Origin: Actinomycetota bacterium
GTDB taxonomy: Bacteria > Actinomycetota > Acidimicrobiia > Spongiisociales > UBA5794
Assembly (NCBI GenBank): GCA_030123765.1
Contig: JASJXX010000001.1
Location: forward strand, 21,210-85,209
Direction: 5' to 3'
DNA length: 64,000 nucleotides
Of this stretch, positions 3,873-59,695 are shown in pieces. Position numbers and translations under genes: made by a program. The notes below the pieces were generated by a model. It saw only the letters and a program-made list of their open reading frames with translations. It was not told the origin of the DNA and did not search any database. How positions within the stretch are numbered: position 1 is the first letter of the stretch; each line of letters opens with the position of its first letter.

Positions 3873-4874
3873 CTACTCAGCCAGCTTGCTGCACACCGTC
3901 TCGGTGATCTTCGCTGCAACGAGGTAGGGGTCCGCGTTTGCGTTCGGGCGACGATCCTCGATGTAGCCCTTCTGATCCTGGTTGACCATCCACGGGATGC
4001 GCACCGAGGCGCCTCGGTCTGACACGCCGTACGAATACTCGGACCACGGCGCGGTCTCGTGCATGCCTGTCAAGCGGCTCTCGATGCCGGCGCCGTAGAC
4101 CGCTACGTGCTCATCAGGTTTCTCGCCGAGCGCCTCACACGCAGCAATGACTGGGTCCCAGCTCTCGCGCATCGCCTTCGTTGAGAAATTCGTGTGCATG
4201 CCAGCGCCGTTCCAATCGCCCTTGACCGGCTTGGGGTCCAGCGTTGCGGAGATCTCGTAGTCCTCTGCGATGCGATAGAGCAGCCAGCGAGCCAGCCAGA
4301 TCTCGTCGCCGATGGCGACCGTGTCGATCGGACCGATCTGGAACTCCCACTGGCCGATCATCACCTCGGCGTTCGTGCCTGAGATGGCAAGACCGGCCTC
4401 CATGCACGCCCACGTGTGCTCCTCAACGATGTCACGGCCCCATATCTCGTCCGCGCCGATGCCGCAGTAGTAGCCGCCCTGGGGCGCGGGGAAGCCGCCG
4501 ATCGGCCAACCATGCGGACGGCCATCCTTGAAGAACGTGTACTCCTGCTCCATGCCGAACCACGGCTCCTGATCTCCGTACTTCTCGAGGACGGCAACGG
4601 CGATAGCCCGCGTGTTCGTCTCATGCGGAGTCATGTCGACATTGAGCACCTCGCACAGGACAAGGATGTCGTTGCCGCCGCGGATCGGGTCGGGCACGAC
4701 CTTGACGGGGCGGAGCACGCAGTCGGATTTCTCTCCTGGCGCCTGCTCCGTCGATGAGCCGTCAAACGCCCATATCGGCTGCTCGGCGTCATCGGGGATC
4801 ACTTTCGTCTTGGATCGCAGTTTGGCGGTCGGCTTCTGACCATCGATCCAGATGTACTCGGCGCGATATGGCAT
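3873..4874 (-). CDS. glnII: Glutamine synthetase type II (eukaryote-like, 333 aa)
   Basis: MPYRAEYIWIDG...GIGADEIWGRDIVEEH...NGAGMHTNFST; the length and motifs are typical of GSII. Confidence 0.9.
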   Translation of the reverse strand: MPYRAEYIWIDGQKPTAKLRSKTKVIPDDAEQPIWAFDGSSTEQAPGEKSDCVLRPVKVVPDPIRGGNDILVLCEVLNVDMTPHETNTRAIAVAVLEKYGDQEPWFGMEQEYTFFKDGRPHGWPIGGFPAPQGGYYCGIGADEIWGRDIVEEHTWACMEAGLAISGTNAEVMIGQWEFQIGPIDTVAIGDEIWLARWLLYRIAEDYEISATLDPKPVKGDWNGAGMHTNFSTKAMRESWDPVIAACEALGEKPDEHVAVYGAGIESRLTGMHETAPWSEYSYGVSDRGASVRIPWMVNQDQKGYIEDRRPNANADPYLVAAKITETVCSKLAE

Positions 4875-5061: not shown

Positions 5062-6390
5062 ATGGAACGCCAGAAGGAGTATGTGCTCTCGACAGTGAAG
5101 GAGCGGGGTATCCGCTTCATCCGCCTGTGGTTCACGGACGTCCAGGGCTTCCTCAAGTCGTTCGCCATCACCCCCGCCGAACTCGAAGTCGCGCTCGATG
5201 AAGGCATGTCGTTCGATGGCAGCTCTATCGACGGGTTCGCCCGCACCCACGAGGCGGACATGCTCGCTAAGCCGGATCCCGCGACGTTCCAGATCCTCCC
5301 GTGGAGAAGTGGCGACGCTGGCGTGGCACGGATGTTCTGCGACATCGTCACCCCCGAGGGGGAGCCTTTCAGCGGTGATCCTCGCAACGTGCTGCGGCGC
5401 AACCTCGAGCGCGCCGCCGAGCTCGGTTACAGCTTCTACGTTGCACCGGAGATCGAGTATTTCTACTTCGAGGATTCGTCCGAAACCCCGAAGGTGCTCG
5501 ACAGGGGCGGCTACTTCGATCTCACGCCACTCGACGTCGCCCAGGAGTACCGGCGTTCCACGATCATGGCCCTTGAGGCGCTCGGCATCCCTGTGACGTT
5601 CAGCCACCATGAAGTCTCGCCATCCCAGCATGAGCTCGACCTTCGACACACGGACGCGCTCACGATGGCGGACAACATCATGACGACACGCCTCACGGTC
5701 AAAGAGGTCGCGATGGAGCACGGGATCTACGCGACGTTCATGCCCAAGCCGCTCGAGAAGTACGACGGGTCGGGCATGCATCTCCACCTCTCCTTGTTCC
5801 AGGGTGACGAGAATGCTTTCCACGACGAGGCGGGTGAGTACGGGTTATCGAAGGTAGCACACGGCTTCATTGCCGGTCTTCTCAAGCATGCTTCCGAGAT
5901 CACTGCCGTGACGAACCAGTGGGTCAACTCCTATAAGCGCCTTGTGAGCGGATTCGACGCCCCGACCTTCGAGACGTGGGCGAGGAACGATCAGAGCGCA
6001 CTCGTGCGCGTGCCCGCAACGAAGAAGGGGAAGATCGATTCGACACGGATCGAATTCCGCTCTCCCGACCCGGCGTGCAACCCTTACCTCGCACTCTCCG
6101 TGATCCTCGCCGCCGGCCTTGCCGGAGTCACGGGAGCCTACGAGCTGGCGCCCGAGGCCGGTTCGGACGTACTGAAGATGTCTACCGAGGAGCGGCGAGA
6201 AGCCGGGATCCGCCACATCCCGCACAGCCTCATCGACGCGATCACCCTCATGGAGGAGTCCGACCTGGTGCGCGATGCGCTCGGTGACCATGTGTTCTCC
6301 TGGTTCCTCAAGAACAAGCGACGTGAGTGGGCACGGTACGAGCAGCACGTGTCAGCGTACGAACTGAGGGAATTCCTACCGGTGTTGTGA
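5062..6390 (+). CDS. glnA2: Glutamine synthetase type I (GlnA2-like, 442 aa)
   Basis: MERQKEYVLSTVKERGIRFIRLWFTDVQGFLKSFAI...; the N-terminus closely matches GlnA2-type GSI, with the full GS catalytic-domain length. Confidence 0.9.
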   Translation: MERQKEYVLSTVKERGIRFIRLWFTDVQGFLKSFAITPAELEVALDEGMSFDGSSIDGFARTHEADMLAKPDPATFQILPWRSGDAGVARMFCDIVTPEGEPFSGDPRNVLRRNLERAAELGYSFYVAPEIEYFYFEDSSETPKVLDRGGYFDLTPLDVAQEYRRSTIMALEALGIPVTFSHHEVSPSQHELDLRHTDALTMADNIMTTRLTVKEVAMEHGIYATFMPKPLEKYDGSGMHLHLSLFQGDENAFHDEAGEYGLSKVAHGFIAGLLKHASEITAVTNQWVNSYKRLVSGFDAPTFETWARNDQSALVRVPATKKGKIDSTRIEFRSPDPACNPYLALSVILAAGLAGVTGAYELAPEAGSDVLKMSTEERREAGIRHIPHSLIDAITLMEESDLVRDALGDHVFSWFLKNKRREWARYEQHVSAYELREFLPVL

Positions 6391-7040
6391 TGTACGTAGC
6401 TCTCTATCCCGAATCGCCGTCCGCCTCTCTGACCGGGGCCCTCATCGGTGCGGGGTACCAACCGGTGCCGATCGCCGACGTTGCCGACGCCGGGCGGAAG
6501 GAGCCCTCCACCGGGTGGGCCGCCGCAGTCGTTGAGCTGGGCGACAACCCGGACATGGCGATCGCCGTTGCGAGAAAGCTGCGTGATGAGTACGACGTCC
6601 CTGTTCTCATCGTCGTCGACCGCACCCTGACGGGAGACCTGGCCGACAAGGACGGCTTCGATGACTTTCTCCTCACCCCCATCGACCAGGTAGAGCTGCG
6701 CATCAGACTGTCGAGGATCGGGGGGAGAGAGCTCGAAGCCACGGACGACCCTGTCCTGCGCTTCGGCGACCTCGAACTCAACACCGCCACTTATCAGGCG
6801 TACCTCGCGGGGAACCCCGTGGACCTCACCTACATGGAGTACGAGCTGCTGCGATTCTTCGTTGAGCACCCGAACCGAGTGTGGAGTCGCGAGCAGATCC
6901 TCTCCAAGGTCTGGGGCTACGACTACTTCGGAGGCTCACGCACCGTAGACGTCCACGTCAGGCGCCTCCGAGCCAAGCTGAGTGAGGAACGCGCCTCGTG
7001 GATCACGACCGTGCGGTCCGTCGGCTACCGCTTCGGATAG
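6390..7040 (+). CDS. glnR: OmpR-family winged-helix regulator, GlnR-like (atypical receiver domain)
   Basis: C-terminal YEYELLRFFVEHPNRVWSREQIL...TVDVHVRRLRAKL...VRSVGYRF OmpR/PhoB DNA-binding domain. ATG at 6390 overlaps the glnA2 stop (TGATG). Confidence 0.75.
   Translation: MYVALYPESPSASLTGALIGAGYQPVPIADVADAGRKEPSTGWAAAVVELGDNPDMAIAVARKLRDEYDVPVLIVVDRTLTGDLADKDGFDDFLLTPIDQVELRIRLSRIGGRELEATDDPVLRFGDLELNTATYQAYLAGNPVDLTYMEYELLRFFVEHPNRVWSREQILSKVWGYDYFGGSRTVDVHVRRLRAKLSEERASWITTVRSVGYRFG
6985..7037. repeat. Direct repeat copy 1 (~53 bp), covering the last 16 codons and stop of glnR
   Basis: tcgtggatcacgaccgtgcggtccgtcggctaccgcttcggatagcggaccc recurs at 7968-8020. Confidence 0.75.
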
Positions 7041-7130
7041 CGGACCCGTCGCCTGACAGCAAGAGATGAGACGAGTCACAGGCCGTCTTGGGATTCTCCA
7101 TGCGGTCCGATGCCAGCCGGGGGTTGCGAG

Positions 7131-7838
7131 TCAGTCGGCGTTCCCCGACTCGACGATCTCTGTCGCGAATTTGGATGCGCCTGCGATCACCCGCCCGGAT
7201 CCCAAAGCCGCTGCTGCAAAGGCGACCGACACGCCAGCCTCGACCCACGTCACGATGTCAGAGACACAGCTGCTCATGACAACGCCCGGCTTCGAAACGG
7301 AGCCGCCCGTCGACGTTCCGCTTGCGTCCCACATCCAGCCAGATTCCATACCTGTCTCGCCCAGAGGGAGTATCTGCACGGTGCCGTCCGCGTACGTGTC
7401 GATGCACCTCGGATCGAGGTGGACGAATAACACCATGAAAGCTGCAGCACCCAATACCCAGACTGCGACGACGGCGCCGAGCGCCCGAAGAATTCCCTCT
7501 GGCTTGCTCCTCGCGTACATCCAGAGCCACACGACGCCGAGCGGAATTATCACAGGGCTCAAGACCCACATGCCCAACCCCAGCGTGATCGAGAGAACAC
7601 CGGCGGCGGCGAATAGGTTCGGCCTCCCACGCATCGCGAAGAGAGCAAGCGTTGGGGGGATGCTGAGCAGCGCGACGAACGCTATGTCGCCTGCAAGGCT
7701 GAGAGACACGGGTATTTGGCTGCCGAGCGCTCTCAGAGTGACCGCCGCCGCCGCAACGACGTAGCCGAGTACAAGGGAGAGACGTGCAGCACGCCCGGCC
7801 ACCCGGACCTCCGAATTCTGCGCTGTGGGCATGAGCAA
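7131..7838 (-). CDS. Hypothetical polytopic membrane protein (235 aa) inside the repeat-flanked insert
   Basis: Several predicted TM helices. I recognise no conserved motif. Confidence 0.45.
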   Translation of the reverse strand: MLMPTAQNSEVRVAGRAARLSLVLGYVVAAAAVTLRALGSQIPVSLSLAGDIAFVALLSIPPTLALFAMRGRPNLFAAAGVLSITLGLGMWVLSPVIIPLGVVWLWMYARSKPEGILRALGAVVAVWVLGAAAFMVLFVHLDPRCIDTYADGTVQILPLGETGMESGWMWDASGTSTGGSVSKPGVVMSSCVSDIVTWVEAGVSVAFAAAALGSGRVIAGASKFATEIVESGNAD

Positions 7839-7967
7839 TCGTAGCGTTCACAGATCCAAGGACGATCCCAGCGACACCACAACTACCGCAGCACCAACCC
7901 GGGATAAAACACCTTCGTCGAACGGTGACACATCCTGCAGAACCAGATGCCGCGAGCACGGACGATC

Positions 7968-22558: not shown

Positions 22559-22643
22559 GACAGGAACGTAGTACGCATCGCGTACCACGGGGTACAAGAC
22601 GCTTCGGTCCAGCGAAGGGCTGCGGGTGTTTATCCTGCTCCGA

Positions 22644-23987
22644 ATGGACCTGCGTGATCTGCCCTCCGTAACGACCCTCGCCGACGACATCGCGAGAGGA
22701 TCCACTCTCCCTCGACCTGTCATCACCCAGGTGTGCCAGGAAGCGATCGACCAGACGCGCGAAGCGATTCAATCCGGCAGGGATGCCGATGCCGGAGCTC
22801 TGGCGGCCGCAGCACTCGCCGACATCGAGGCAGCACGTCCGCGCTCGGTTATCAACGCAACGGGTGTGCTCCTCCATACGAACCTCGGCAGGGCCCGTGT
22901 GAGCCACTCCGTCGCCGCCGCGTCCTCGACGATCCAGTCAGCGGCGAGCAACGTCGAGATCGACCTACGCACCGGCCGAAGATCTAGCCGCTCCACGTAT
23001 CTGCGAGTCCTGCTCCCTGTCGTCACCGGGTCCGAGGACGGATTCGCGGTGAACAACAACGCCGGTGCTCTATTGCTCGCGCTCGCTTCCATCCCCGGTC
23101 AAGCCAGACAAGTAGCAGTATCACGAGGCGAGCTCATCGAGATCGGTGGCTCTTTCCGCCTCCCCGATCTCATGGCTGCAAGTGGCGTACAACTCGTCGA
23201 AGTCGGCACTACGAATCGGACGCGCCTCTCCGACTACGCGGCGGTCGCCGCTTCGGTCGATGCGCTACTGAAGGTCCACCCCTCCAATTACCGGGTCGAG
23301 GGTTTCCAGGAGGAAGCGAGCTACGCCGATCTCGCCGAGCTCGCCCACTCCCACGGCATCCCGTTCCTCGCGGACGTGGGAAGCGGCCTCATCGACGAAG
23401 CCGCTCCGTGGCTAGCAGACTCCGACCGCCGCTGGCTGGCGGGCGAGCCGGGCGTCAAACAGACGATTGCAGATGGTGCCGACCTCGTCCTGTTCTCCGG
23501 CGACAAGCTGCTTGGTGGCCCCCAAGCAGGCATCATCGTCGGCACACACGACGCTGTTGAGCGGGCCGCGCGCCACCCGATCGCACGAGCCGTGCGGCTC
23601 GACGGCTCGCGTATCGCTGCTGTCGCGGCGACGCTCGAGAGCTACGCGCATCATCGCGTTGACAACCTCCCGTTCTGGGCGATGGCCGGCGCGAGCGTCA
23701 CCGACATCAATGAGCGGGCACACGAGGTGATCCGCGGTCTGTCTCCGGGCATACGCATCGTCGACGGGCGCTCCATCCCCGGTGCGGGATCGGTCCCCGG
23801 CGCGACCATCCCCACGAAACTGATCGAGCTACCCGGTCCAGCGGACGGTATGTGGTCGGGGTTGGCGGCCTGCGAACCACCCGTCATCGCGAGCCGTCGC
23901 GAGGCGCACACACTTCTCGACCTGCGATCGGTGCTCCCGGATGACGACGCGAACGTCGCCGCCGCTCTCCGAAGAGTTTTGAGCTGA
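22644..23987 (+). CDS. selA: L-seryl-tRNA(Sec) selenium transferase
   Basis: DLRDLPSV...VINATGVLLHTNLGRA...SGDKLLGGPQAGIIVG...; the length and motifs are typical of SelA. Confidence 0.85.
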   Translation: MDLRDLPSVTTLADDIARGSTLPRPVITQVCQEAIDQTREAIQSGRDADAGALAAAALADIEAARPRSVINATGVLLHTNLGRARVSHSVAAASSTIQSAASNVEIDLRTGRRSSRSTYLRVLLPVVTGSEDGFAVNNNAGALLLALASIPGQARQVAVSRGELIEIGGSFRLPDLMAASGVQLVEVGTTNRTRLSDYAAVAASVDALLKVHPSNYRVEGFQEEASYADLAELAHSHGIPFLADVGSGLIDEAAPWLADSDRRWLAGEPGVKQTIADGADLVLFSGDKLLGGPQAGIIVGTHDAVERAARHPIARAVRLDGSRIAAVAATLESYAHHRVDNLPFWAMAGASVTDINERAHEVIRGLSPGIRIVDGRSIPGAGSVPGATIPTKLIELPGPADGMWSGLAACEPPVIASRREAHTLLDLRSVLPDDDANVAAALRRVLS

Positions 23988-23988
23988 C

Positions 23989-25758
23989 GTGCCGATCGTT
24001 GGCACGGCAGGTCACGTCGACCACGGCAAGTCAACGCTCGTTCAGGCACTCACGGGCCGAGACCCGGACCGGTGGGCGGAGGAGAAGGAGCGCGGCCTGA
24101 CGATCGACCTCGGTTTCGCCTGGACCGAGATCGAAGGCATCGACGTCGGGTTCGTGGATGTGCCGGGACATGAGCGCTTCATCAAGAACATGCTCGCCGG
24201 TGTCGGAGGCATCGACTGTGCCCTCCTCGTAGTTGCGGCCGACGGTGGATGGATGCCCCAGACAGAGGAGCACGCGGCGGTACTCGACCTGCTCGACACC
24301 AGGGCCGGCGTCATCGCTCTCACCCGAATCGACCTCGTCGATGACGACACGCGAGAACTCGCAGCGCTCGAGATCATGGAGGAGACCGCCGGAACGGTGC
24401 TCGCGGACTGGCCGATTGTGCCCGTGTCCCCCATCACGGGGGAGGGTCTTGATGAGTTGCGCGCGCAGCTGGCTACAGCCCTCGGCCGTCACAAGCCGCT
24501 GGTGGCCGGACCGCTGCGCATGTGGATCGACCGGTCCTTCACGATCAGCGGCGCGGGGGTCGTCGTCACGGGAACCGTCTCAGGCGGTCGGATCGCCATC
24601 GGAGACGAGGTTGCGATCCTCCCAGGAGGCCGCTCTGACCGCGTCAGGGGCCTCCACCATCACGACCATGCGGTCGATGAAGCCAGCGCGGGATCACGAA
24701 CGGCGATCAACCTCCAGTCTTCCTCGCTCACCGATGTGCCTCGTGGGACCTTGATCTGCACACCGGGGACGATCGCGGAGACCGGGCGCATCCTCACGAC
24801 CATCGAGCCGGCACGCGGCTTCGATGAAATTCCTCCACGCGGCGCCTTCCACGTCCACCTCGGAACGGCACACATTCCGGTCCAGATCAGGCAGCTTCAC
24901 GACTCCAACGCGTACATGCTCACCCTCTCAGACGTGCTCCCCGTAGCCATCGGTGATCGATTCATCCTACGCGACACCGGCCGGAGAGCAGTCGTCGGCG
25001 GCGGTCGGGTACTCGACCCACGACCCGCGGATCGAGTCTCGATGGAGACGATCGAACTTCTCGCAGGATCCCTCGACCGTCCAGTGCGCGACGTGGCGGA
25101 TGCCCTCCTCACCGTGCGCGGGATCACCCGCGCAGACGACCTGGCAGAGGCGGCAGGGGGAGTGGCTCCGTCCTGCGGAACGCGCGCGGGACCACTCATC
25201 ATCTCCGAAGCAGCGATCGCCGACATCGCTCTGCGCATTACCGACATCGTCGGGAGATATCACGACGCGCATCCGCTTCGCCCAGGAATGGCAAAGCCAG
25301 AAGTCGCCACCCGGATCGGTTTGGACCTCGCTGTGATCGAGGCCACGGTTCGAGAGTCGGAGAGCCTTCGCGAGTCGAACGGGTCCATTCATCTCGTCGA
25401 CTTCGTCAACGCTCTGACACCCCAGCAGGAGTCAACATGGGAGAGGGTACGATCCGACCTCGAAGCATCGTACGACGTACCGAGGATGGGCGTCATCGAC
25501 CTGGACTCTGAGCTGCTTCATGCGCTGGTACGGCGCGGTGACCTCATCCAGGTAGCGCCCGACCTCGTCTTCACCCAACGTCAGGTCAACAGCCTCACCC
25601 AACGTCTCGGCGAACTCCCTGAGGGCTTCACGGTCTCGCAGTTCAAGGAGGCGTTCGGCATGACCAGGCGCCAGGCGATACCCACACTCGAGTGGCTCGA
25701 CAAGTCGGGGTGGACCCGAAGGTCAGGAGACGGCAGGTCCCTCAGACGACGGACGTAG
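23989..25758 (+). CDS. selB: Selenocysteine-specific elongation factor
   Basis: IVGTAGHVDHGKSTLV...DVPGHERFIKNM...; an EF-Tu-like GTPase with a long C-terminal winged-helix extension (589 aa). It is separated from the selA stop by 1 nt. Confidence 0.85.
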   Translation: MPIVGTAGHVDHGKSTLVQALTGRDPDRWAEEKERGLTIDLGFAWTEIEGIDVGFVDVPGHERFIKNMLAGVGGIDCALLVVAADGGWMPQTEEHAAVLDLLDTRAGVIALTRIDLVDDDTRELAALEIMEETAGTVLADWPIVPVSPITGEGLDELRAQLATALGRHKPLVAGPLRMWIDRSFTISGAGVVVTGTVSGGRIAIGDEVAILPGGRSDRVRGLHHHDHAVDEASAGSRTAINLQSSSLTDVPRGTLICTPGTIAETGRILTTIEPARGFDEIPPRGAFHVHLGTAHIPVQIRQLHDSNAYMLTLSDVLPVAIGDRFILRDTGRRAVVGGGRVLDPRPADRVSMETIELLAGSLDRPVRDVADALLTVRGITRADDLAEAAGGVAPSCGTRAGPLIISEAAIADIALRITDIVGRYHDAHPLRPGMAKPEVATRIGLDLAVIEATVRESESLRESNGSIHLVDFVNALTPQQESTWERVRSDLEASYDVPRMGVIDLDSELLHALVRRGDLIQVAPDLVFTQRQVNSLTQRLGELPEGFTVSQFKEAFGMTRRQAIPTLEWLDKSGWTRRSGDGRSLRRRT

Positions 25759-27878: not shown

Positions 27879-27930
27879 CCGCAAGGCAGGAACCGATAGA
27901 GGAGCTATACACTCCCCGCCATCGGGACGT

Positions 27931-28007
27931 GGCGCAGCTTGGTAGCGCGCATCGTTCGGGACGATGAGGCCGTCGGTTCGAATCCGACCGTCCCGACCAA
28001 GCCCCTC
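27931..28007 (+). tRNA. tRNA-Pro (anticodon CGG)
   Basis: Folded by hand. Acceptor CGGGACG/CGTCCCG, D-stem GCGC/GCGC, anticodon stem CATCG/CGATG with loop TTCGGGA, T-arm GTCGG-TTCGAAT-CCGAC, discriminator A and an encoded CCA. Confidence 0.85.
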
Positions 28008-47776: not shown

Positions 47777-50572
47777 ATGTCGGAACGATGGATATACGCA
47801 TTTGATGACATCGACGCTGCTATGGAGCGCTGCGACGGCGACTGGGACAGGGTGCGGGGCCTCCTCGGAGGCAAGGGAGCGAACCTTGCCGACATGATCC
47901 GCCTCGGGATCTCCGTACCACCGGGCCTCACGATCACTTCTGAGGCCTGCACGGAGTATCTGGCGAACGACCACGGAACCCTGCCAGACGGTCTCCTCGA
48001 AGAACTCGCGACGGCGCTGCGAACCGTTGAAGACATCACAGGCAAGAAGCTCGGTGATCCGAGCAACCCGCTGCTGGTGTCATGCCGGAGCGGCTCCAAG
48101 TCCTCGATGCCCGGGATGATGGACACCGTTCTCAACATCGGGCTCAACGACGACGTAGCCCACGGTATGGCGGAGCTCTTCGACGATCGTCACTTCGCAC
48201 TCGACTCCTACCGCAGGCTGATCCAGATGTTCGCCTCTGTCGTGATGGGCGTCCCGGATGAAGCGTTCGAGACGGTGCTCAGAGCGAACCGCCGCACGCG
48301 CGACGTCGCGAGCAACAGCGACCTCCCCGATGACGACCTCGAACGCGTCGTCGAGGAGTTCAAGGAGATCTTCCGGAATCATGTCGGGCGCGATTTCCCG
48401 ACAGATCCCATAGAGCAGTTGACCATGACCGTGCGCGCCGTCTTCCGATCCTGGAACGGCAAGCGCGCGATCGCGTACCGGGCTGCGGCTGGAATCCCTG
48501 ATGATCTCGGTACTGCCGTGAACGTGCAGGCGATGGTCTTCGGCAATACAGGCCCGGAGTCGGCAACCGGCGTGGTTGTCTCGCGTAGTGCAACGACCGG
48601 GGCGCCAAAGATGGTCGGCGACTTCCTCATCAATGCTCAGGGAGAGGACGTCGTGGCCGGCATACGGCAGACGAGCACGATCGAGGAGTTCAGCCGGGTG
48701 ATGCCCGAACTCCACGCTGAGCTGGAGCAGCACGCCCGCACCCTTGAGCGGCACTACCGCGATGTGCAGGACATCGAGTTCACAATCGAGCGTGGCAAGT
48801 TGTGGCTGCTTCAGACCCGAAACGCTAAACGCACCGCTCAGGCAGCGGTCCGCATCGCCGTCGACCTCGTATCCGAGGGCGTCATCACCAGGGAGGACGC
48901 CCTCAAGCGCGTCACTCCCGAACAAGTCGAGTTCTTTCTGCATCCTCAGTTCGACGCGAGAGCCAAACGAGCGGCCATCGACGAAGGTCGAAAACTCACC
49001 GAGGGGCTCAATGTCTCGCCTGGTGCGGCCGTCGGCATCATTGCGCTCGATGCCGACCTCGCGGAGCAGTGGGCGAGCGAGCGCGACGAACCGATCATCC
49101 TCGTACGTCCAGAGACCAAACCGGACGACATCCATGGAATGCTTGCATCAGCGGGAGTCCTCACTTCCAGCGGCGGCCGCACAAGCCACGCCGCCCTCGT
49201 CGCACGACAGTTCGGCAAGCCTGCGGTGGTTGGCGCGCAGGAGATCGAGGTGAAAGCCGAAGCCCGGATGATCATGGTCGGATCACGAGCGATCAGAGAG
49301 GGTGATTGGATCTCCCTCGACGGATCGACGGGTGAGGTGTTCCTCGGTCAGATCGAGACGTCTCTCCCTGAGTTCGACGATCCGTGGCTCATGACCCTTC
49401 TGACGTGGGCGGACGAGATCCGTGAACTTGACGTCTGGACGAACGCGGACCACCCGGCCGACGCTGTGCGGGCCTTCACATTCGGCGCGAACGGGATCGG
49501 CCTGTGCCGCACGGAGCACATGTTCTTCGCCACAAATCGCCTGCCGATCGTCCAACGGATGATCATGGCGTCGGACGACGACGAGAGGCGTGAGGCGCTC
49601 AGCGAGCTTCTGCCTCTCCAACGGTCAGACTTCGCGGGGTTGTTCCGGGCGATGGACGGGAAACGGGTCATCATCCGCCTGCTCGACCCGCCGCTCCATG
49701 AGTTCCTCCCGAACCAGGACGACCTGATGCGCAAGACCACGGATCTCAAGATCGGGTTGATGAAGGCCGGCGACCTGGCCGAAGTCAACGCGTTGGTTCG
49801 CGAGCTGGAGGAGGCGGAGCACATCCTCAGGGGCGTCGAAGCACTCCACGAGTCGAATCCCATGCTCGGCCTGCGCGGTGTCCGCCTCGCGATCCTGATC
49901 CCGGATCTTCCCGAGATGCAGATCAGGGCGATCTTCGAGGCGACGTTGCAGGTACTCGAGGAGGGTGTGGTGCCGAAGCCCGGCATCATGATCCCGCTCA
50001 CAAGCGACGCGGCCGAGCTCACACCACTCAAAGAGATCGTCGAACGCATGGCGGACGAAGTCCTCGGCGATCGTAAGGATGACGTTGACTATGCGTTCGG
50101 GACGATGATCGAGACACCCCGCGCTGCGCTAACGGCTGGGGCCCTTGCCGAGACAGCGGAGTTCTTCTCCTTCGGAACGAACGACCTGACCCAGATGACG
50201 TTCGGAATCAGCAGGGACGACGCGGAGAAAGCTTTCCTGATCGATTACCTCAAACTCGGCGTGTTCACGGACAACCCGTTCGAAACGCTTGACCGGGAGG
50301 GCGTCGGATCACTGATCCGATCTGCGGTTGCTGCAGGGCGGAGCGCCAGACCCGACATCCACATCGGCATCTGCGGCGAGCACGGCGGCGACCCGGCTTC
50401 TATCGCTCTCTTCGACGAGATCGGCATCGACTACGTCAGCTGCTCACCACTGCGGGTACCTGTCGCAAGGCTCGCCGCAGCCCAAGCGGTGCTCAACCGT
50501 TCTGGTAAGATCACTGTCAGCGTGAATACGCACGCAGGACCGGTTGAAGGAGTGGCGCCAGGCACCGGTTGA
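47777..50572 (+). CDS. ppdK: Pyruvate, phosphate dikinase
   Basis: 931 aa; GGKGANLAEM-type N-terminus, a phospho-His domain and a PEP-utilising TIM barrel. Confidence 0.95.
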   Translation: MSERWIYAFDDIDAAMERCDGDWDRVRGLLGGKGANLADMIRLGISVPPGLTITSEACTEYLANDHGTLPDGLLEELATALRTVEDITGKKLGDPSNPLLVSCRSGSKSSMPGMMDTVLNIGLNDDVAHGMAELFDDRHFALDSYRRLIQMFASVVMGVPDEAFETVLRANRRTRDVASNSDLPDDDLERVVEEFKEIFRNHVGRDFPTDPIEQLTMTVRAVFRSWNGKRAIAYRAAAGIPDDLGTAVNVQAMVFGNTGPESATGVVVSRSATTGAPKMVGDFLINAQGEDVVAGIRQTSTIEEFSRVMPELHAELEQHARTLERHYRDVQDIEFTIERGKLWLLQTRNAKRTAQAAVRIAVDLVSEGVITREDALKRVTPEQVEFFLHPQFDARAKRAAIDEGRKLTEGLNVSPGAAVGIIALDADLAEQWASERDEPIILVRPETKPDDIHGMLASAGVLTSSGGRTSHAALVARQFGKPAVVGAQEIEVKAEARMIMVGSRAIREGDWISLDGSTGEVFLGQIETSLPEFDDPWLMTLLTWADEIRELDVWTNADHPADAVRAFTFGANGIGLCRTEHMFFATNRLPIVQRMIMASDDDERREALSELLPLQRSDFAGLFRAMDGKRVIIRLLDPPLHEFLPNQDDLMRKTTDLKIGLMKAGDLAEVNALVRELEEAEHILRGVEALHESNPMLGLRGVRLAILIPDLPEMQIRAIFEATLQVLEEGVVPKPGIMIPLTSDAAELTPLKEIVERMADEVLGDRKDDVDYAFGTMIETPRAALTAGALAETAEFFSFGTNDLTQMTFGISRDDAEKAFLIDYLKLGVFTDNPFETLDREGVGSLIRSAVAAGRSARPDIHIGICGEHGGDPASIALFDEIGIDYVSCSPLRVPVARLAAAQAVLNRSGKITVSVNTHAGPVEGVAPGTG

Positions 50573-50691
50573 CAATCGACTCCAAGATCCAGCCGCACCG
50601 TCTAATCGTGCCTTCCCTTGATGCGACGGTGCGGCTGCCTCCTTCCAGCCTACGAGCGTGTTATCGGATACCTCGAAGGTTGACGACTACG

Positions 50692-51894
50692 ATGCCCGCC
50701 ATGCGCGACGAAGGAGGCTCGGTGCCAGAAGAACAGGCAACGCCAGCGTCAGAACCCCCCGACAGGATCTCGCACACGGTGACGATTCGCCTCGACCCGC
50801 GATCCGTCTGGCAGATGATCGGTGCGATCCTGATCACGATGCTCGCCCTCTGGCTCGCAGGCGCCGCGAGCCGTCTACTCGTCGTACTCGCCATGTCGTT
50901 CTTCTTCAGCCTCGCTCTCCAACCCGCCGTCCTCTGGCTCACCACCAAGTACCGATGGCGCCGGGGGACCGCCGTGGGTGTCATCTATCTCATCGGGATC
51001 GCCATCGTCGTCTTGATGCTCGCCCTCCTCATCCCCGCCCTGGTGGAACTCGCACACGCGATCAGCCTCCAGGCGTCGGGGTGGATTACGAATGTGGCCC
51101 TCTGGCTCGAGAAGATGTTCGGGATCACGATCTCAGACTCCGCCACGGTGCGTGCGTGGGGAGACAACTTCAGCAACGATGTCATTGCATGGGCTCAAGG
51201 CGGCGGGCTCGGGAGCGTCTTCGGCATCGCGCGCTCCGGACTGGGTCTCGTCTTCGACATGGCAACGATCGCTATGTTCACCTTCTATTTCACCGCCGAT
51301 GCGAAGCGGCTTCAGAACGCGGTCCTCGGTCTCGTCAGGCCAGAGAACCAGCACCGCGTCGGCTGGACCTGGGATCAGGCTGTCATCCAGACGGGTGGAT
51401 ACTTCTACTCACGGCTCGTCCTCATGACTATCAACGGTCTCGGCTTCTTCATCACGATGGTGCTCGTCGGCGTGCCCGCCACCATCTCGATCCCACTCGC
51501 ACTGATCGGTTCGTTCATCGCCACTTTCATCCCCGCGATCGGGAGTTACATCGGCTCCGCGGTCCCGATAGCCCTGACACTCGGCCTCGCAGGCGCGACG
51601 CCTGCGCTCATCGTGCTCGCCTACGCGATCGTGTATCAACAGATCGAGAACTACTGGCTGGGTCCGAAGATCTCCGCCAGGACCATGCCGCTCAACGGTG
51701 CGGTCGCGTTCGGCGCTGCGTTAGCCGGGGGCACCATTGCCGGACCGATCGGTGCGTTCGTCGCACTCCCTGTGGCGGCACTCGCCACCGCCCTCGTATC
51801 AAACTTTGTCAACCATTACGAGGTGGAGTACACATTCGCGTACGGCGAGGTCGTTGTTGGTGAGGAGAGCTCCTCCGAACAATCTGATCCGTGA
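50692..51894 (+). CDS. AI-2E-family transporter (PerM/YhhT-like)
   Basis: Eight TM segments with an AI-2E-family pattern. Start at MPAMRDEGG. Confidence 0.8.
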   Translation: MPAMRDEGGSVPEEQATPASEPPDRISHTVTIRLDPRSVWQMIGAILITMLALWLAGAASRLLVVLAMSFFFSLALQPAVLWLTTKYRWRRGTAVGVIYLIGIAIVVLMLALLIPALVELAHAISLQASGWITNVALWLEKMFGITISDSATVRAWGDNFSNDVIAWAQGGGLGSVFGIARSGLGLVFDMATIAMFTFYFTADAKRLQNAVLGLVRPENQHRVGWTWDQAVIQTGGYFYSRLVLMTINGLGFFITMVLVGVPATISIPLALIGSFIATFIPAIGSYIGSAVPIALTLGLAGATPALIVLAYAIVYQQIENYWLGPKISARTMPLNGAVAFGAALAGGTIAGPIGAFVALPVAALATALVSNFVNHYEVEYTFAYGEVVVGEESSSEQSDP

Positions 51895-51972: not shown

Positions 51973-53163
51973 ATGAACGCTCGATTCCTTGAACACCTGG
52001 CCGGCCAGACCGATGAGATCCGTGACGCCGGGCTCCACAAGTCCGAACGGGTCCTGGCCTCGCCCCAGGACGCGACGATCCGCCTCGCCGACGGCACTGA
52101 GGTGATCAACTTCTGCGCGAACAACTATCTGGGACTCGCGAACGACATCCGTCTAGAGGACGCCGCTGTCCGAGCGGTGAGAGCGCACGGCTACGGAATG
52201 GCCTCAGTGCGTTTCATCTGTGGGACCCACGAAGTTCACAAGCAACTCGAGCGTGACATCAGCGCGTTCCTGAAGACCGGGGACACGATCCTCTACTCGT
52301 CGTGCTGGGATGCGAACGGTGGGCTCTTCGAGACGGTGCTCGGACCTGAGGACGCCGTCATCTCGGACTCTCTGAACCACGCCTCGATCATCGACGGCAT
52401 CCGCCTGTCAAAAGCAGCCAGGTATCGGTACGCCAACAACGACATGGAGGATCTCGCCCGCAAGCTTGACGAGGCCAGGAACGCACGGTTCAGACTGATC
52501 GCGACCGATGGCGTCTTCTCCATGGATGGCACAATCGCCAACCTGCCGGCAATCTGTGACCTTGCCGACGAACACGACGCGATGGTGATGGTCGATGACT
52601 CGCACGCCGTCGGATTCATCGGCGAACAGGGTGGGGGCACCCCCGACCACTGGGGCGTCCAGGATCGTGTGAACATCATCACCGGAACCTTCGGCAAGGC
52701 GCTCGGAGGGGCTTCGGGCGGTTACACCTCCGGTCACAAGGAGATCGTCGACCTTCTGCGCGAGAGATCCCGTCCGTACCTGTTCTCGAACTCGCTCGCC
52801 CCCATGATCGCCGCGGCGACGATCGAGGCTCTCGGCCTGCTGCGCGAGTCTGACGATCTACGCATCCGACTCGCTGCGAATGCAGTTCGGTTCCGCTCCG
52901 GAATGGAGGCCGCAGGGTTCACCCTCCTGGGGGAGGGCCATCCGATCATCCCGGTGATGCTCGGGGACGCGAAGCTCGCAACGGAGATGGCTGACCGGCT
53001 TCTCGCTGAGGGTGTGTACGTAATCGGCTTCTCGTTCCCTGTGGTCCCGCGGGGCGGAGCACGTATCCGGACCCAGATGTCCGCGGCACACACGCTGGAG
53101 CACATCGAGACGGCTATCGCAGCGTTCGTGAAGGTCGGACACGAACTCGGCATTGTCTCGTGA
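51973..53163 (+). CDS. kbl: Glycine C-acetyltransferase (2-amino-3-ketobutyrate CoA ligase)
   Basis: PLP-dependent alpha-oxoamine synthase family motifs (...TFGKALGG...); 396 aa. Confidence 0.9.
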
Positions 53164-54188
53164 TGCGAGCACTCGTCAAGGCCAGGCCGGAGCCGGGACT
53201 GTGGATGGAGGAGATCCCGATTCCGCGCGTCGGTCCGAACGACGTTCTCATCAAGGTGACCAAGACGTCTATCTGTGGCACCGACCTCCACATCGTCGCG
53301 TGGGATGAGTGGGCTCGCGAAACCGTCCCTGTCCCCATGACCCTCGGCCACGAATACGTCGGCGTCGTAGCGGAGGTCGGCGCCGAAGTCGAGGGCATCG
53401 AGGTGGGGCGGCGCGTCTCGGGCGAGGGCCACATCGTGTGCGCACGCTGCCGCAACTGCCAGGCGGGCCGGAGGCACCTGTGCATCAACACGGTTGGCGT
53501 AGGGATCGACCGCCCGGGTGCTTTCGCAGAGTATGTCGCTATCCCGGGATCGAACGTGCAGCCGATCCCGGACGGCATCGCTGACGACATCGCGAGCATC
53601 CTCGACCCTCTCGGAAACGCGGTACACACAGCACTCCAATTCGATCTCGTCGGCGAGGACGTCCTCATCACCGGGTCCGGCCCGATCGGGATGATGGCCG
53701 TTGCCATCGCACGTCACGTAGGGGCGCGGTTCATCGTCGTGACCGACGTGAACGACTACAGACTCGAGCTCGCAGAGACGATGGGGGCGGACAGAGAATT
53801 GAACGTCACGAGAGACTCCGTGGCCGACGTGATGGATGATCTCGGAATGAAGGAAGGCTTCGACGTTGGACTTGAGATGTCCGGTGATCCCGCTGCGCTG
53901 CACGACATGATCACCACGATGAACAACGGGGGCAAGATCGCTCTCCTGGGCATCCCCCCGAAGCAGGCGCCGATCGATTGGAACGACATCGTGTTCAAGG
54001 GGTTGACGCTCCAGGGCATCTACGGAAGACGGCTGTTCGAGACCTGGTACAAGATGCTCGCAATGCTTCAGACAGGGCTCGATGTCTCTCCGGTGATCAC
54101 CCACCACTTCGCGGCAGAGGAGTACGAGGACGCGCTCGATGTCATGCAGTCAGGCGACACTGGCAAGGTCATCCTCGACTGGACCTAG
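53160..54188 (+). CDS. tdh: L-threonine 3-dehydrogenase
   Basis: Zn-dependent MDR motifs (GHEYVG..., GSGPIG); overlaps kbl by 4 nt. Confidence 0.9.
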
Positions 54189-54232: not shown

Positions 54233-55075
54233 GTGGGCCGACGTTTCGTCATCCGCGATGCCTCGCGAGTTGGAACCGACATCGTCCGGCTCGTCGTTGA
54301 GGCGCCACGAGTCGCTCGGCACGCCCGGCCGGGGCAGTTCGTGATCGTCCGTTCCGGTGAACACGGTGAGCGTATCCCCCTCACTAGTCGCAGCACCGAC
54401 GCTGCCGAGGGAACGATCACCCTCATCGTCCAGGCAGCTCGCAGCACACCACGAACAAGATCAATCAGAAGGGCGCAGGAGACCACTTCAGGGATGTGCT
54501 GGGACCGCTCGGCACTCCATCCCACATCGAACGATTCGGTACCTGCGTCCTCGTCGCCGGAGGAATCGGAGCGGCGATCGTTCTCCCCGTAGCCGAGGCT
54601 CTCGCGGAGGCGGGGTACGTTGCCATCGGCATCGTGGGGGTCCGCGACAGTGAACACCTGGTCCTCCTCGACGAGATGCGTGCCGCGTGCAACGAGGTGA
54701 TCGTGACGACGGACGACGGGTCTGAGGGCCTGCACGGCCTTGTGACCGACGCCCTCGTAACTCTCATGGCGGAGACCGCCATCGACTATGTGTTTACCGC
54801 AGGACCGATCCCAATGATGCAAGCTGTCGCCGAGCGGACGCGTCAAGACGCCATCGCCACCGTTGCGAGCCTGAACCCTCTCATGGTCGACGGCACCGGC
54901 ATGTGCGGCGGGTGCAGAGTGACCATCAACGGTGCATCGAAGTTCGCTTGTATCGACGGCCCCGAAATCGATGCACACGATGTCAACTTCGCGTTGCTCG
55001 GTACGCGAACCGGGGCGTACCTCTCCTTTGAATCCTGCAAGCTCGATGAGGCGGTCGAGGCTCTGGATGCCTGAA
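54233..55075 (+). pseudogene. Frameshifted nfnA/sudB/pyrK-like ferredoxin-NADP reductase small subunit
   Basis: The N-terminal part (RFVIRD...PGQFVIVR...ERIPLT...GTITLIVQ) is in one frame. The remainder (GDHFRDVLGPLGTPSHI...GGIGAAIV...GTGMCGGCRV 2Fe-2S motif) is in a different frame from about 54440. Confidence 0.6.
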
Positions 55076-55557
55076 CGCACGAAGCGCGAGCGCATGAAGA
55101 TGGAGCGCACCGCCGTTCCGAGACAGAGATGCCAGCTCGGAGCGAGGAGATCGCCCACGCCCTGGAAGAGGGCGTCCACATCCGCTTCCTCATCGCCCCA
55201 ACATCATTCAACGGCGCAGAGGGGTGGCTCTCGAGTGTCACGATCCAGAAGATGCAGCTCGGAGAGCCCGACGCCGACGGGCGAGCGCGGCCGGATCCGA
55301 TCCAGGGCGCGTTCGAGACAATCGACGCAGACGTAGTCGTTGTCGCCATCGGCAACGCGCCGAATCCTCTCCTCACGAAGTCCACGCCAGCCCTCACAAC
55401 GAGCCCGTGGGGCACGATCGAGATCAACGAGGAGACAGGCCTCACATCGATCCCCGGCGTGTTCGCCGGGGGCGACATCACAACCGGCAGCGCAACCGAG
55501 GTCCTTGCTCTCGCTGCGGGACGCCGCGCCGCGGCTGCTATCGATGACTATCTCTGA
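55067..55557 (+). pseudogene. Remnant of a GltD/NfnB/SudA-like large subunit with an internal deletion
   Basis: A GltD-type N-terminus MPERTKRERMKME... at 55067 overlaps the upstream stop (ATGCCTGA). It then jumps, in a different frame, to the C-terminal ~145 residues (...RRSETEMPARSEEIAHALEEGV...MQLGEPDADGRARP...GVFAGGD...IDDYL). Confidence 0.55.
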
Positions 55558-55590: not shown

Positions 55591-56085
55591 TCACATCACG
55601 AACGGGATTATCCGCCACGCGACCTCAGAGCGGTACGCCCGATAGCCCTCGACGCGCACGACGAGCATCTCTTCCTCCCTCTCCGTCTTCGCCATGAAGA
55701 AAACGAGAAACGTCGCGGATACCAGCAGCACCGCTGGATTGGCGTAGGCGAGCCCGACCCCGAGGGTGAAGATGACGACGCCCGAGTACATGGGGTGACG
55801 CACATGACGGTACGGACCAGAGTCGATGAGCTGCGCGTTCTCGACGGGCCGCGGAAGCGGAGACACCACCCCTCCATGCGCGACCAGTGCCCAGAGCGCA
55901 ACACCCGCACCACCGACACCGATCACGACACCCACCATCCGGGCGAAGATGAGGCCGGGAACTTCGTTCAATGTGTCGCCAAAGACCACGGCGAAGACGA
56001 AGAGGGCGAAGATCACACCCTGGACAACAACCCACCCGATCTCCCGCTCCATATATGAGTCGATACGACTCATATTTTCTGGCAC
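55591..56085 (-). CDS. Isoprenylcysteine carboxyl methyltransferase (ICMT/PEMT)-family membrane methyltransferase
   Basis: ...LIDSGPYRHVRHPMYSGVV...EEEMLV... The true start is probably Met12 (56052), because the first 11 codons are encoded by the HAIR palindrome. Confidence 0.7.
   Translation of the reverse strand: MPENMSRIDSYMEREIGWVVVQGVIFALFVFAVVFGDTLNEVPGLIFARMVGVVIGVGGAGVALWALVAHGGVVSPLPRPVENAQLIDSGPYRHVRHPMYSGVVIFTLGVGLAYANPAVLLVSATFLVFFMAKTEREEEMLVVRVEGYRAYRSEVAWRIIPFVM
56053..56075. promoter_or_regulatory. HspR-associated inverted repeat (HAIR) upstream of clpB
   Basis: ATATGAGTCGATACGACTCATAT, a perfect 10-bp-arm palindrome with the TGAGT-N7-ACTCA core, about 70 bp upstream of the clpB start. 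Confidence 0.6.
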
Positions 56086-56142
56086 GGGCTACGCTTTCCT
56101 GTGGGCATAGGATGTAGTATCCCACGAGGACGCGTGAAACTC

Positions 56143-58734
56143 ATGAATATCAATATATTCACCGAACGGAGCAAGCAAGCCGTGCTCCACGCACGCGACA
56201 CCGCTGCTGAACGCCGTCACCAGTATGTGCACCCCGAGCATCTCCTTGAGAGCCTGCTCGCCCAATCCGACGGCATCATCTACCCGATCCTGGCGAAGCT
56301 GGGTGTGCACGTCACCGACGTTCAACGGCCGAACGAAGCTGCGCTCGACGCGATGCCGACCATGTACGGCGGGAACGAGGTCGCATTCGCCCAGGATGCA
56401 CTCGATCTCCTCAGCACCGCCGAACTCGAGATGAAGGCGTTGCACGACACCTACGTATCCATCGAGCACGTCCTCATCGCGCTCGCGAACTCCCCCTCGT
56501 CAACAGGTGACACCTTACGCGAGGCTGGCGTCACAAAGGAGAGCATTCTCACAGCCCTCACGGAGGTACGCGGCTCCCAACGCGTCACCAGCCAGAACCC
56601 GGAGGACACCTTCGCCCCGCTCGAGCAGTTCGGCCGCGACCTCACCCAGGACGCTCGAAACGGCAAGCTCGACCCGGTCATCGGGCGTGACGACGAGATT
56701 CGCCGTGTCATACAAGTGCTCTCACGCCGGAAGAAGAACAACCCCGTGCTGATAGGCGAGCCAGGTACGGGAAAGACAGCGATAGCCGAAGGCCTCGCGC
56801 AGCGCATCGCCGACGGCGACGTACCCGAGAGCCTGAAAAACTGCAGATTGATCTCACTCGACATCGGGGCGATGGTTGCAGGCGCCAAGTTCCGCGGCGA
56901 GTTCGAGGAGCGCCTCAAGGCCGTGCTCAGCGAGATCAAGGCGTCGGAGGGGCGCATCATCACTTTCATCGACGAGATGCACACCATCGTCGGTGCCGGC
57001 GCCGCTGAGGGATCGATGGATGCCTCGAACATGTTGAAGCCGATGCTCGCCCGCGGTGAGCTGCGCATGATCGGAGCCACCACGCTCGACGAATTCCGCA
57101 AATACATAGAGAAGGATCCCGCCCTCGAACGGCGTTTCCAGCCCGTGCTCGTCGAACCGCCAACCGTCGATGAGACGATCGGAATCCTTCGAGGCCTCAA
57201 GGAGCGCTACGAGATACACCACGGGGTACGCATCACCGACGCTGCCCTGATCGGCGCCGCGGTCCTCTCCGACCGGTACGTGACGGGTCGTCACCTTCCG
57301 GACAAAGCGATCGACCTCATCGACGAATCGGCATCGAAGCTCAGGATCGAGATCGACTCGATGCCTGATGAGATCGATGAACTCGAGCGGCGCCGCCGCC
57401 AGTTCGAGATCGAGCGCCAGGCACTCTCCAAGGAGGAGGACAAGACGTCGCAGGAGAGACTCGCCGCAATTGAGAAGGAACTCGCCGACCTCGGCGAAGA
57501 GCTCGACGCGCTCACGGCACACTGGCAGCTTGAGAAAGATCTGATCGGCAAGATCCGCTCGACCAAGGAACAGATCGAGGAGGGTCGGACGGAAGCCGAA
57601 CGTGCTGAACGCGAGGGCGACCTTGAGAAGGCAGCCGAGCTCCGCTACAGCACGCTCCCCACCCTTCAACAGCAACTTACGACAGGGCAGGTAAAGCTCG
57701 ATGAGCTCCAGGTGAATCTAAAGATGCTGAAGGAAGAAGTGGACGAGGAGGACGTTGCCGAGGTCGTGAGCCGCTGGACCGGCATTCCGGTCTCCAAGCT
57801 GATGGAGGGAGAGATGCACAAGCTCGTGCGCCTCGAAGAGCACCTTCACAAGCGTGTCATAGGACAGGACGATGCCGTGTCTGCAATATCGAACGCCATT
57901 CGGCGGTCGCGGGCGGGGCTCTCCGATCCCAACCGCCCGATCGGTTCCTTCCTCTTCCTCGGACCGACCGGCGTTGGCAAGACCGAGCTAGCGAGAGCGC
58001 TCGCTGAGTTCCTCTTCGACGACGAACGCGCGATGGTTCGCCTCGACATGTCTGAGTACATGGAGAAGCACTCGGTGAGCCGCCTGATCGGAGCACCGCC
58101 CGGGTACGTCGGCTACGACGAGGGTGGACAACTCACGGAGGCCGTGCGTCGCAGACCGTACTCGATCGTCCTGCTCGACGAGGTCGAGAAGGCGCACCCG
58201 GAGGTGTTCAACGTGCTGCTTCAGTTACTCGACGACGGACGATTGACCGACGGGCAGGGCCGCACCGTCGACTTCACGAACACCGTTCTCGTGATGACGT
58301 CGAACCTCGGGTCAGAGCTGATCACCGCTGACTCTCCGGAAGATGTGATCGAAGCGAGGGTGTTGGAGGCAGTCAAGGAACACTTCAGGCCTGAGTTCCT
58401 GAACCGAGTGGATGACACAATCGTGTTCCACCGCCTCTCGAAGGATGACCTGCGCCAGATCGTCGCGATCCGATTCGCTGAACTGCAGCGTCGGCTCGCC
58501 GACCGCAAGGTCGACGTTGAACTCACCGAGAACGCGATCGACTGGCTCACCGACCATGGCTACGACCCGGTGTACGGCGCTCGACCACTGAAGCGCCTCC
58601 TCCAATCTGCCGTGGCTGACCCCCTTGCGATGAGGATTCTCAGCGGCGACCTCCCGGAGAACTCGAAGGTCACCATCGACACCTCCGAACACGGCCTCGC
58701 TTTTCTCTCTCCCTCTCGCGGGAGCAACGGCTGA
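56143..58734 (+). CDS. clpB: ATP-dependent chaperone ClpB
   Basis: Two AAA+ modules ([18 protein letters not shown]), a coiled-coil middle domain and a Clp N-domain. Confidence 0.95.
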
Positions 58735-58784: not shown

Positions 58785-58957
58785 CAGTATGGCCACAGTC
58801 GTCGTTAGCGTCTCCGCCGACAGAGCGCTCATCAAGAGCGGTTGAGGGACGGGCCCTGTGAAACCGCAGCAACCGGTGACATCGCCATCCGGCGACGAGC
58901 ACGGGGCGGAGGGAAGCTCGTCTCGTGGCAGGATGGCTTCGGGACCGGAGCGGTGCG

Positions 58958-59695
58958 ATGATGCTCGAACTCGCCTCCGTCTCCCTGCGCTATCCGAACG
59001 GCCACCACGCCATCGAGGGAATCAACCTCTCTGTGCCCGCGAGGTGCATCGTGGTCATGATCGGGGTGAGCGGATGCGGCAAGAGCACACTGCTGCGTCT
59101 GGTGGCCGGCCTTGAGCAGCCAACGTCGGGGACGGTCTCGGTCGCCGGTGAGATCGTCGACCGTCCTACCCGCCATGTCGGTTTCGTATTCCAGGAACCC
59201 CGGCTCATGCCCTGGCTGACAGTCTCGGAGAACGTCACCTTCGGGTTGGCGGACCGCCCGAGGAAGGAGCGGGATGCCGTCGCAGCCCGCGTCCTCGACC
59301 GGATCGGGCTCGCGGACTTCGGGCGTGCTCTCCCCAAGCAGCTCTCGGGGGGTATGGCCCAACGCGTCGCCCTTGCTCGTGCGCTCGTCGGCGACCCGGA
59401 GGTGCTGCTGCTCGACGAGCCATTCAATGCGCTTGACGCGCTCACCCGATCGGACCTTCAACAACATCTGCTCGACCTGTGGGCCGTCGACCACCGAACG
59501 ATGCTGCTCGTCACTCACGATATCGACGAGGCGCTCAGGCTCGCCGACACCATCGTGGTTCTCGCCGGTCAGCCGGGCCGTATCGTCGACCAGGTCGACA
59601 TCGACGACCCCCGACCGCGGGATCTCACATCTGAGAGATTGGCATCGATTCGTCGCTGGGTAATCGCCGGGCTATCGGTGACCCCCAAGACCTGA
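58958..59695 (+). CDS. ABC transporter ATP-binding protein (NitT/TauT-type), orphan
   Basis: Walker A GVSGCGKST, LSGGMAQRVALARAL. No permease gene is adjacent. Confidence 0.8.
   Translation: MMLELASVSLRYPNGHHAIEGINLSVPARCIVVMIGVSGCGKSTLLRLVAGLEQPTSGTVSVAGEIVDRPTRHVGFVFQEPRLMPWLTVSENVTFGLADRPRKERDAVAARVLDRIGLADFGRALPKQLSGGMAQRVALARALVGDPEVLLLDEPFNALDALTRSDLQQHLLDLWAVDHRTMLLVTHDIDEALRLADTIVVLAGQPGRIVDQVDIDDPRPRDLTSERLASIRRWVIAGLSVTPKT

Follow-up and report, generated by a model that had tools for sequence, protein, structure and literature searches.

The question raised by positions 54233-55557 of the DNA analysed here is whether they code for a working NfnAB, the electron-bifurcating, two-subunit NADH/ferredoxin:NADP+ oxidoreductase, or for the remains of one. 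The DNA is a stretch of 64,000 nucleotides (the window) from a metagenome-assembled genome (MAG) of an uncultured member of the Actinomycetota. An earlier note on it described an inactivated NfnAB-type operon, and the limits given there are correct. It is highly probable that the locus is a pseudogene of nfnAB that has become fixed in its lineage, with an insertion of two nucleotides in nfnA and a deletion of 916 nucleotides in nfnB. Judged from the sequence, Nfn activity from this locus is impossible.

The two lesions and the intact relatives

The genes and gene fragments were assigned from a map of the open reading frames (ORFs) of the window together with profile matches to Pfam and NCBIfam. 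No single long ORF exists between tdh and the methyltransferase gene that lies beyond the locus. Three pieces with family matches are found in this interval, and the matches (E = 3.5e-68, 1.5e-50 and 2e-107) far exceed chance. The remnant has the following parts:

54233-54448, plus strand: 5' part of the nfnA remnant, in frame 2 from a GTG start at 54233, with about 72 codons of the FAD-binding barrel
54445-54450, plus strand: frameshift site of nfnA, with two surplus bases, AGC-ACA-CC-ACG, within GCACACC
54451-55074, plus strand: 3' part of the nfnA remnant, in frame 1, with the NAD-binding domain and the [2Fe-2S] motif DGTGMCGGCRV...AC
55067-55111, plus strand: kept start of nfnB, with ATG 55067 in ATGCCTGA, followed by 15 native codons, MPERTKRERMKMERT
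55109-55112, plus strand: deletion junction of nfnB, with ACCG microhomology, where 916 nucleotides are gone
55108-55557, plus strand: 3' part of the nfnB remnant, in frame 1, with the last 149 codons, HRRSETEMPAR...GVFAGGD...IDDYL

Two relatives carry the corresponding locus in intact form, the second of which was found when metagenome contigs were scanned for a DNA pattern:

L082: PPDK-AI2E-kbl-tdh-metallophosphoesterase-nfnA (279 residues)-nfnB (484 residues), carrying P0002, the best intact NfnA homolog
L089 (PVMK01118935.1): PPDK-AI2E-kbl-tdh-nfnA (279 residues)-nfnB (485 residues); here nfnA follows tdh without a gene in between, as it does in the window

Since the PPDK-AI2E-kbl-tdh neighbourhood is the same in the window, L082 and L089, the three loci are orthologous. 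In all of them nfnA is placed directly upstream of nfnB with an overlap of a few bases. The nucleotide identity of the window to these relatives is about 73-76%, with synonymous sites saturated, and the identity at the protein level is 70-86%. The ancestor would have carried a two-gene nfnA-nfnB operon directly downstream of kbl-tdh. In L082 the gene of a metallophosphoesterase of 584 residues (6190-7944) is located between tdh and nfnA. It has no tblastn match in the window, is missing from L089 too, and was probably inserted in the lineage of L082.

The product of nfnA is a PyrK-like small subunit. Its frame-2 ORF spans 54233-54592, and the 5' part matches positions 6-69 of the NCBIfam model PRK06222, named 'sulfide/dihydroorotate dehydrogenase-like FAD/NAD-binding protein', with E = 9e-19; the 3' part matches positions 86-271 of the same model with E = 3.5e-68. 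In a tblastn comparison, residues 4-71 of the L082 NfnA map to 54242-54445 with 72% identity, and residues 73-279 map to 54451-55071 with 71% identity. The frame change that had been predicted near 54440 is placed by this comparison at 54445-54450. It falls inside a conserved G-[AS]-T-T motif, where the relatives have three codons for Ser/Ala-Thr-Thr. The displayed NfnA homologs (n=25) have VQAVG[AS]TT in this position, except for VQAVGSAT in P0002. When two nucleotides are removed, a protein of 279 residues is obtained, and its alignment to 112 intact homologs is gap-free.

The stop codon of nfnA is located at 55072-55074, and the [2Fe-2S] motif is retained in the 3' part (Pfam DHODB_Fe-S_bind, PF10418, E = 1.1e-12). 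Gene callers start an ORF of 192 residues at GTG 54496 (54496-55074, frame 1). A protein search with this piece returns many homologs of 279 residues with 60-72% identity and one 192-residue protein with 98%, and a scan of genome contigs with the NfnA fragment gives only relatives of at most 57% identity, from many phyla. The surplus bases likely arose by slippage, a duplication of an AC/CA dinucleotide that would have changed GCACC into GCACACC at about codon 72. This insertion shifts the frame inside the FAD-binding barrel.

The start of nfnB is genuine, as the earlier note had recognized: ATG 55067 overlaps the nfnA stop in ATGCCTGA, and 14 of the 18 residues coded by 55067-55120 are identical to residues 1-18 of the L082 NfnB, an N-terminus that is the same in L089. 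However, the ORF from this ATG has no family match and stays out of frame until 55336, and the native start would yield an out-of-frame peptide of 89 residues. The predicted jump to the last 145 or so residues in another frame is found from 55108, in frame 1, where residues 320-468 of the L082 NfnB map to 55108-55554 with 78.5% identity (tblastn). The frame-1 ORF that holds this 3' part (55084-55557) matches positions 301-449 of 449 in TIGR01316 (E = 3.3e-41) and positions 601-749 of 752 in PRK12778 (E = 1.5e-50), that is, only the last third of these GltD/NfnB-type models.

The missing piece had been estimated at about 310 codons, and it measures 916 nucleotides, or 305 codons and one nucleotide, which is the reason for the change of frame. 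Residues 16-319 of 484/485 are lost. The ends of the deletion read ...CGC ACC G.. on the 5' side and ..T ACC GCC GT on the 3' side. In L089, codons 13-17 read ...GACCGCACCGACATG... and codons 319-323 read ...CTCTACCGACGCTCG..., with ACCGAC at both ends, and the window reads ...ATGAAGATGGAGCGCACCGCCGTTCCGAG... across the junction; the shared repeat is ACCG(AC). In a blastn alignment of the window with L089, 920 nucleotides of L089 are unmatched against 4 nucleotides of the window. The deletion was probably mediated by this microhomology, and it also shifts the frame of nfnB. The alignments to NfnA and NfnB profiles, which the earlier note had proposed, and to the intact relatives have placed both lesions (54445-54450 and 55109-55112) at base resolution.

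The loss covers the Fe-S and FAD/NAD(P) domains, as had been claimed. In the intact L082 NfnB, residues 26-134 belong to Fer4_20 and residues 149-456 to Pyr_redox_2. Fer4_20, which holds two [4Fe-4S] clusters and all of the cluster-binding cysteines, is entirely within the deleted range, and it has no Pfam match in any fragment of the window. Of Pyr_redox_2, only profile positions 187-282 of 291 are left. The deletion also takes the GSGPAG motif for FAD (GxGxxG, at about 152-157), the fragment GIPEFRLPK, which we take to hold the Arg in contact with the bifurcating flavin, and the GGGNTAVD motif for NADPH (at about 296-303; L082/L089 numbering).

On NfnA, a functional Nfn needs the a-FAD and the [2Fe-2S] cluster; on NfnB it needs the NADPH site, two [4Fe-4S] clusters and the b-FAD, to whose N5 an Arg is hydrogen-bonded; nfnA is normally located just upstream of nfnB (PMC6405883). 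Among the features that can be judged from sequence, three are lacking at the window locus: a continuous NfnA, the Fer4_20 domain, and the b-FAD and NADPH sites. The single NfnA chain of about 280 residues with the a-FAD barrel, the NAD(H) domain and the [2Fe-2S] cluster is divided between two frames. The disabling lesions are defined against intact syntenic orthologues.

Recurrence of the lesions in independent assemblies

Seven independent contigs, which come from other samples and from different assemblers (ENA scaffolds, Logan contigs and a k141 contig), were aligned to the window locus:

L081: ENA ZHOU22-1, SAMN16252666; covers the frameshift site
L083: ENA ZHOU22-1, SAMN16252670; covers the frameshift site
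L084: ERZ27267440; covers the frameshift site
L085: Logan SRR32155509; does not cover the frameshift site
L090: Logan SRR24269693; does not cover the frameshift site
L091: Logan SRR33235153; does not cover the frameshift site
L092: Logan SRR24269683; does not cover the frameshift site

The deletion junction of nfnB is identical in all seven contigs. The two-nucleotide insertion of nfnA is present in all three that reach its site (L081, L083 and L084), and the other four (L085 and L090-L092) begin downstream of it. The lesions are thus reproduced in independent data, and a sequencing or assembly error as their cause, which the earlier note had left as a possible explanation, is excluded. Because both lesions occur in every assembly that covers them, they must have arisen before these strains diverged, at a nucleotide divergence of at most about 1%. 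The contigs are 99.1-99.9% identical to the window, with 2-18 substitutions each.

An indel is found in L090 only. One G is gone from a run of five (window 55468-55472; L090 549-718), by which the GVFAGGD motif is destroyed and a product of 152 residues, P0251, results. The missing G may reflect decay that is still going on, or else an error in the homopolymer.

In L083, tdh is broken after window position 53666 by 284 nucleotides of unrelated DNA of lower GC content, followed by a gap of N (L083 704-997). The homology resumes at 53813, which is exactly the position at which L084, from another sample, begins. This may be an insertion or mobile element specific to the strain, or an artefact of scaffolding.

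Constraint on the remnant and other explanations

Polymorphisms were counted in the ancestral frames among five alleles (the window, L081, L083, L084 and L085). Of the 18 variable sites of the remnant (1323 nucleotides), 13 are nonsynonymous and 5 synonymous; the flanking coding sequence (3312 nucleotides) has 14, 7 of each kind. Variable sites are about three times as dense in the remnant as in the flanking genes. Conserved residues are among those changed: the window has Arg in place of Gly in VQAVG, and L083 and L084 have Arg in place of Met in GTGMCGGC. The mean identity of the repaired NfnA to the 112 intact homologs is 62.4%, while it is 68.8% for P0002, the nearest intact relative, and 67.7-69.6% for five further members of the family. 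The repaired NfnA falls below P0002 in 111 of the 112 comparisons. In a three-taxon comparison, the branch of the window is 1.7 times the mean of the L082 and L089 branches for nfnA and 3.6 times for the C-terminal part of nfnB; among the control genes the ratio is 0.83 (kbl), 1.16 (tdh) and 1.25 (PPDK). Though the numbers are small, these values are supportive of a relaxed constraint on the remnant, without being decisive. The remnant would presumably have drifted unconstrained since the lesions arose.

Several observations weigh against a decayed locus. The AI-2E transporter, also a control gene, has a window branch of 2.8 times, so that the branch-length test is only suggestive, and the polymorphism counts are small and their events non-independent. 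The old frames (279 and 149 codons) have no stop codons and the surviving cofactor motifs are mostly intact, which limits the extent of the decay; the fragments may retain residual expression. In addition, NCBI lists the 142-residue ORF (55129-55557, from ATG 55129) as a protein.

The loss had been called recent, and this was borne out in part. The absence of stops in the old frames indicates that the loss came late in comparison with the divergence from L082 and L089. However, the lesions are already common to all strains that cover them, and the remnant has gathered an excess of amino acid change.

The most probable of the other explanations is that the surviving ORFs have become functional anew, with the 142-residue ORF as a small protein family or with NfnA as a split protein of two polypeptides. 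This we consider highly improbable. The first residue of the 142-residue ORF is the Met of EMPAR, a conserved motif, and most strains have kept this ORF, the old frames are open, and an unrelated lineage (L086-L088) has a standalone ORF of 147 residues, 'MPAR...', which is identical in three samples. However, the fragment is the end of a discontinuous two-domain FAD/NADPH fold and lacks both dinucleotide-binding motifs. The polymorphisms of this ORF are 6 nonsynonymous and 2 synonymous, and in one strain (L090) GVFAGGD is destroyed by the frameshift. The nfnA frameshift falls within the beta-barrel rather than at the border of a domain, and the start of the 192-residue ORF is an internal GTG.

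A search with the 142-residue ORF gives four variants of 142 residues with 97-99% identity, from its own lineage, and many short matches that start at or near the Met of EMPAR. The short matches that were examined do not form an independent family, as the earlier note had allowed for the C-terminal piece. Two of them, P0126 and P0138, are truncations at contig edges, and in-frame NfnB continues upstream of both to the end of the contig (GGGNTAVDGARTALRLGAEPVR directly before MLYRR.., and RSREE directly before MPAR). The third is another remnant, a C-terminal piece of NfnB of 147 residues (L086 4868-5311, also in L087 and L088) with homology from about RSRAEMPAR. It adjoins the 931-residue HsdR gene of a type I restriction system, with non-homologous sequence and a stop just upstream. 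An independent small family would be standalone and contig-internal in many lineages and under purifying selection, and such a pattern was not found among the short matches examined; within the lineage of the window, the piece gives no indication of constraint. A C-terminal query retrieves C-terminal pieces only, and the recurrence of these pieces is therefore an ascertainment effect. The truncation point of L086-L088 is within a few codons of that of the window. A deletion hot spot, considered for this reason, was set aside in view of the same bias of the query.

It is similarly doubtful, to a very high degree, that the loss of NfnAB was adaptive or lineage-defining, for example as a move away from ferredoxin-linked anaerobic redox balancing, or that the 142-residue ORF was kept for a new role.

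The idea of an artefact, by which nfnA and nfnB would be intact in the real genome, has a negligible chance: the source is a MAG, and MAG contigs can hold indel errors and collapsed regions, but the lesions recur in contigs whose substitutions show that they do not derive from one and the same assembly, four further variants of 142 residues are found in the protein database, on 7 contigs, and the remainder of the window is full of long intact ORFs, densely packed, with full-length Pfam matches. Programmed ribosomal frameshifting at CACACC, by which a full-length NfnA would be restored to work with another partner, is just as remote: it would account for one short frameshift in an otherwise open frame of 279 codons at the same site in all strains, but the +2/-1 shift at AGCACACCACG is without a known slippery heptamer (stimulatory structures were not looked for), the region is in one frame in all 112 intact homologs, the cognate partner NfnB is destroyed, and NfnA has excess substitutions, conserved residues included.

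Known systems, annotation and neighbourhood

The ancestral locus fits 'pattern A' of NfnAB (Liang et al. 2019, PMC6405883), with the order nfnA to nfnB and an overlapping stop and start. In the intact relatives the subunits have 279 and 484/485 residues, and NADH-dependent ferredoxin:NADP+ (bifurcating) activity would be their predicted function. The copy in the window differs by a frameshifted NfnA and an NfnB without residues 16-319, and by its host, an uncultured member of the Actinomycetota. The best match is NfnI of P. furiosus (5JCA), with E = 1.8e-79 for the repaired NfnA against 5JCA_S and E = 2.2e-143 for the L082 NfnB against 5JCA_L. Next is NfnAB of T. maritima (4YLF), with E = 2.5e-67 against 4YLF_A and E = 8.8e-141 against 4YLF_B, respectively. 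The matches of the L082 NfnB to 5JCA_L and 4YLF_B span its full length.

Other systems of related architecture all score below NfnI and NfnAB. The SudBA sulfide dehydrogenase, or NfnII/Xfn, of P. furiosus (5VJ7) has the same PyrK-like and GltD-like subunits, with E = 8.1e-44 for 5VJ7_B and E = 3.5e-136 for 5VJ7_A. GltD of glutamate synthase (6S6S, 2VDC) gives E = 5.8e-91; it has the large GltB as partner, and no gltB is adjacent here. PyrK of dihydroorotate dehydrogenase B (1EP1) shares the fold and the C-terminal [2Fe-2S] motif (PF10418), but it matches with no more than E = 3.6e-12, a pyrD partner is absent, and the NCBIfam PyrK equivalog scores far under its cut-offs.

The locus resembles ordinary bacterial pseudogenes in its dinucleotide-repeat indel, its deletion between direct repeats of 4-6 nucleotides, its fixation in the lineage, its drift and its further lesions, and no mechanistic difference from them is seen. 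The loss of nfnAB is an ordinary kind of event and contains no new biological principle. A search of the literature that combined nfnAB and pseudogene gave incidental mentions only, in which the event itself is not described. The locus offers a base-resolved loss of genes fixed across a natural population, with two lesions common to several metagenomes and a third arising in one, and intact syntenic relatives are at hand for comparison.

Its main relevance is for annotation and metabolic reconstruction, as the lineage is unable to make NfnAB from this locus. NCBI annotates the 142-residue remnant of nfnB as MDK1017855.1, 'FAD-dependent oxidoreductase', by which domain-based pipelines could wrongly credit the lineage with an Nfn or a GltD-like enzyme. 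Other proteins of the source MAG, on the same contig of 97,587 bp, are MDK1017851 (PPDK), MDK1017853 (Kbl), MDK1017854 (Tdh) and MDK1017856 (methyltransferase). There is no protein accession between Tdh and MDK1017855, and the nfnA pieces have no protein record; a look-up of the exact 192-residue sequence likewise gave no entry. The 192-residue and 142-residue ORFs would be by-products of gene calling. A paralog search of the 64-kb window with the intact NfnA and NfnB found nothing but the remnant itself, and the closest named NfnA homologs have NCBI accessions outside the block of the source MAG.

The neighbouring genes are the following:

47777-50572: PPDK, upstream of the remnant
50569-51894: AI-2E transporter (AI2E), following PPDK
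51973-53163: kbl
53160-54188: tdh, with the ancestral nfnA-nfnB operon directly downstream
55591-56085, minus strand: methyltransferase of the ICMT/PEMT family
56101-58734: clpB

Two antisense ORFs at the locus (336 and 212 residues) were dismissed as genes, as they have zero Pfam matches. A scan of promoters and terminators gave nothing beyond the shuffled expectation.

Some other features of the window were observed. The gene selA (22626-23987) adjoins selB (23989-25758), which indicates that the machinery for selenocysteine incorporation is present. A tRNA-Sec is not found in the window, and its sole tRNA is tRNA-Pro(CGG) at 27923-27999. A glutamine synthetase of 333 residues (3873-4874, minus strand) is arranged head-to-head with a GSI-type glutamine synthetase of 442 residues (5062-6390). 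The shorter one was considered as a second pseudogene and rejected, as its ORF reads intact and its size fits GSII-type enzymes. A SAM riboswitch (Rfam RF00162) is located at 58826-58901 on the plus strand, where it scores 46.9 bits (gathering score 44.4), directly 5' of the gene of an ABC-transporter ATPase (58925-59695).

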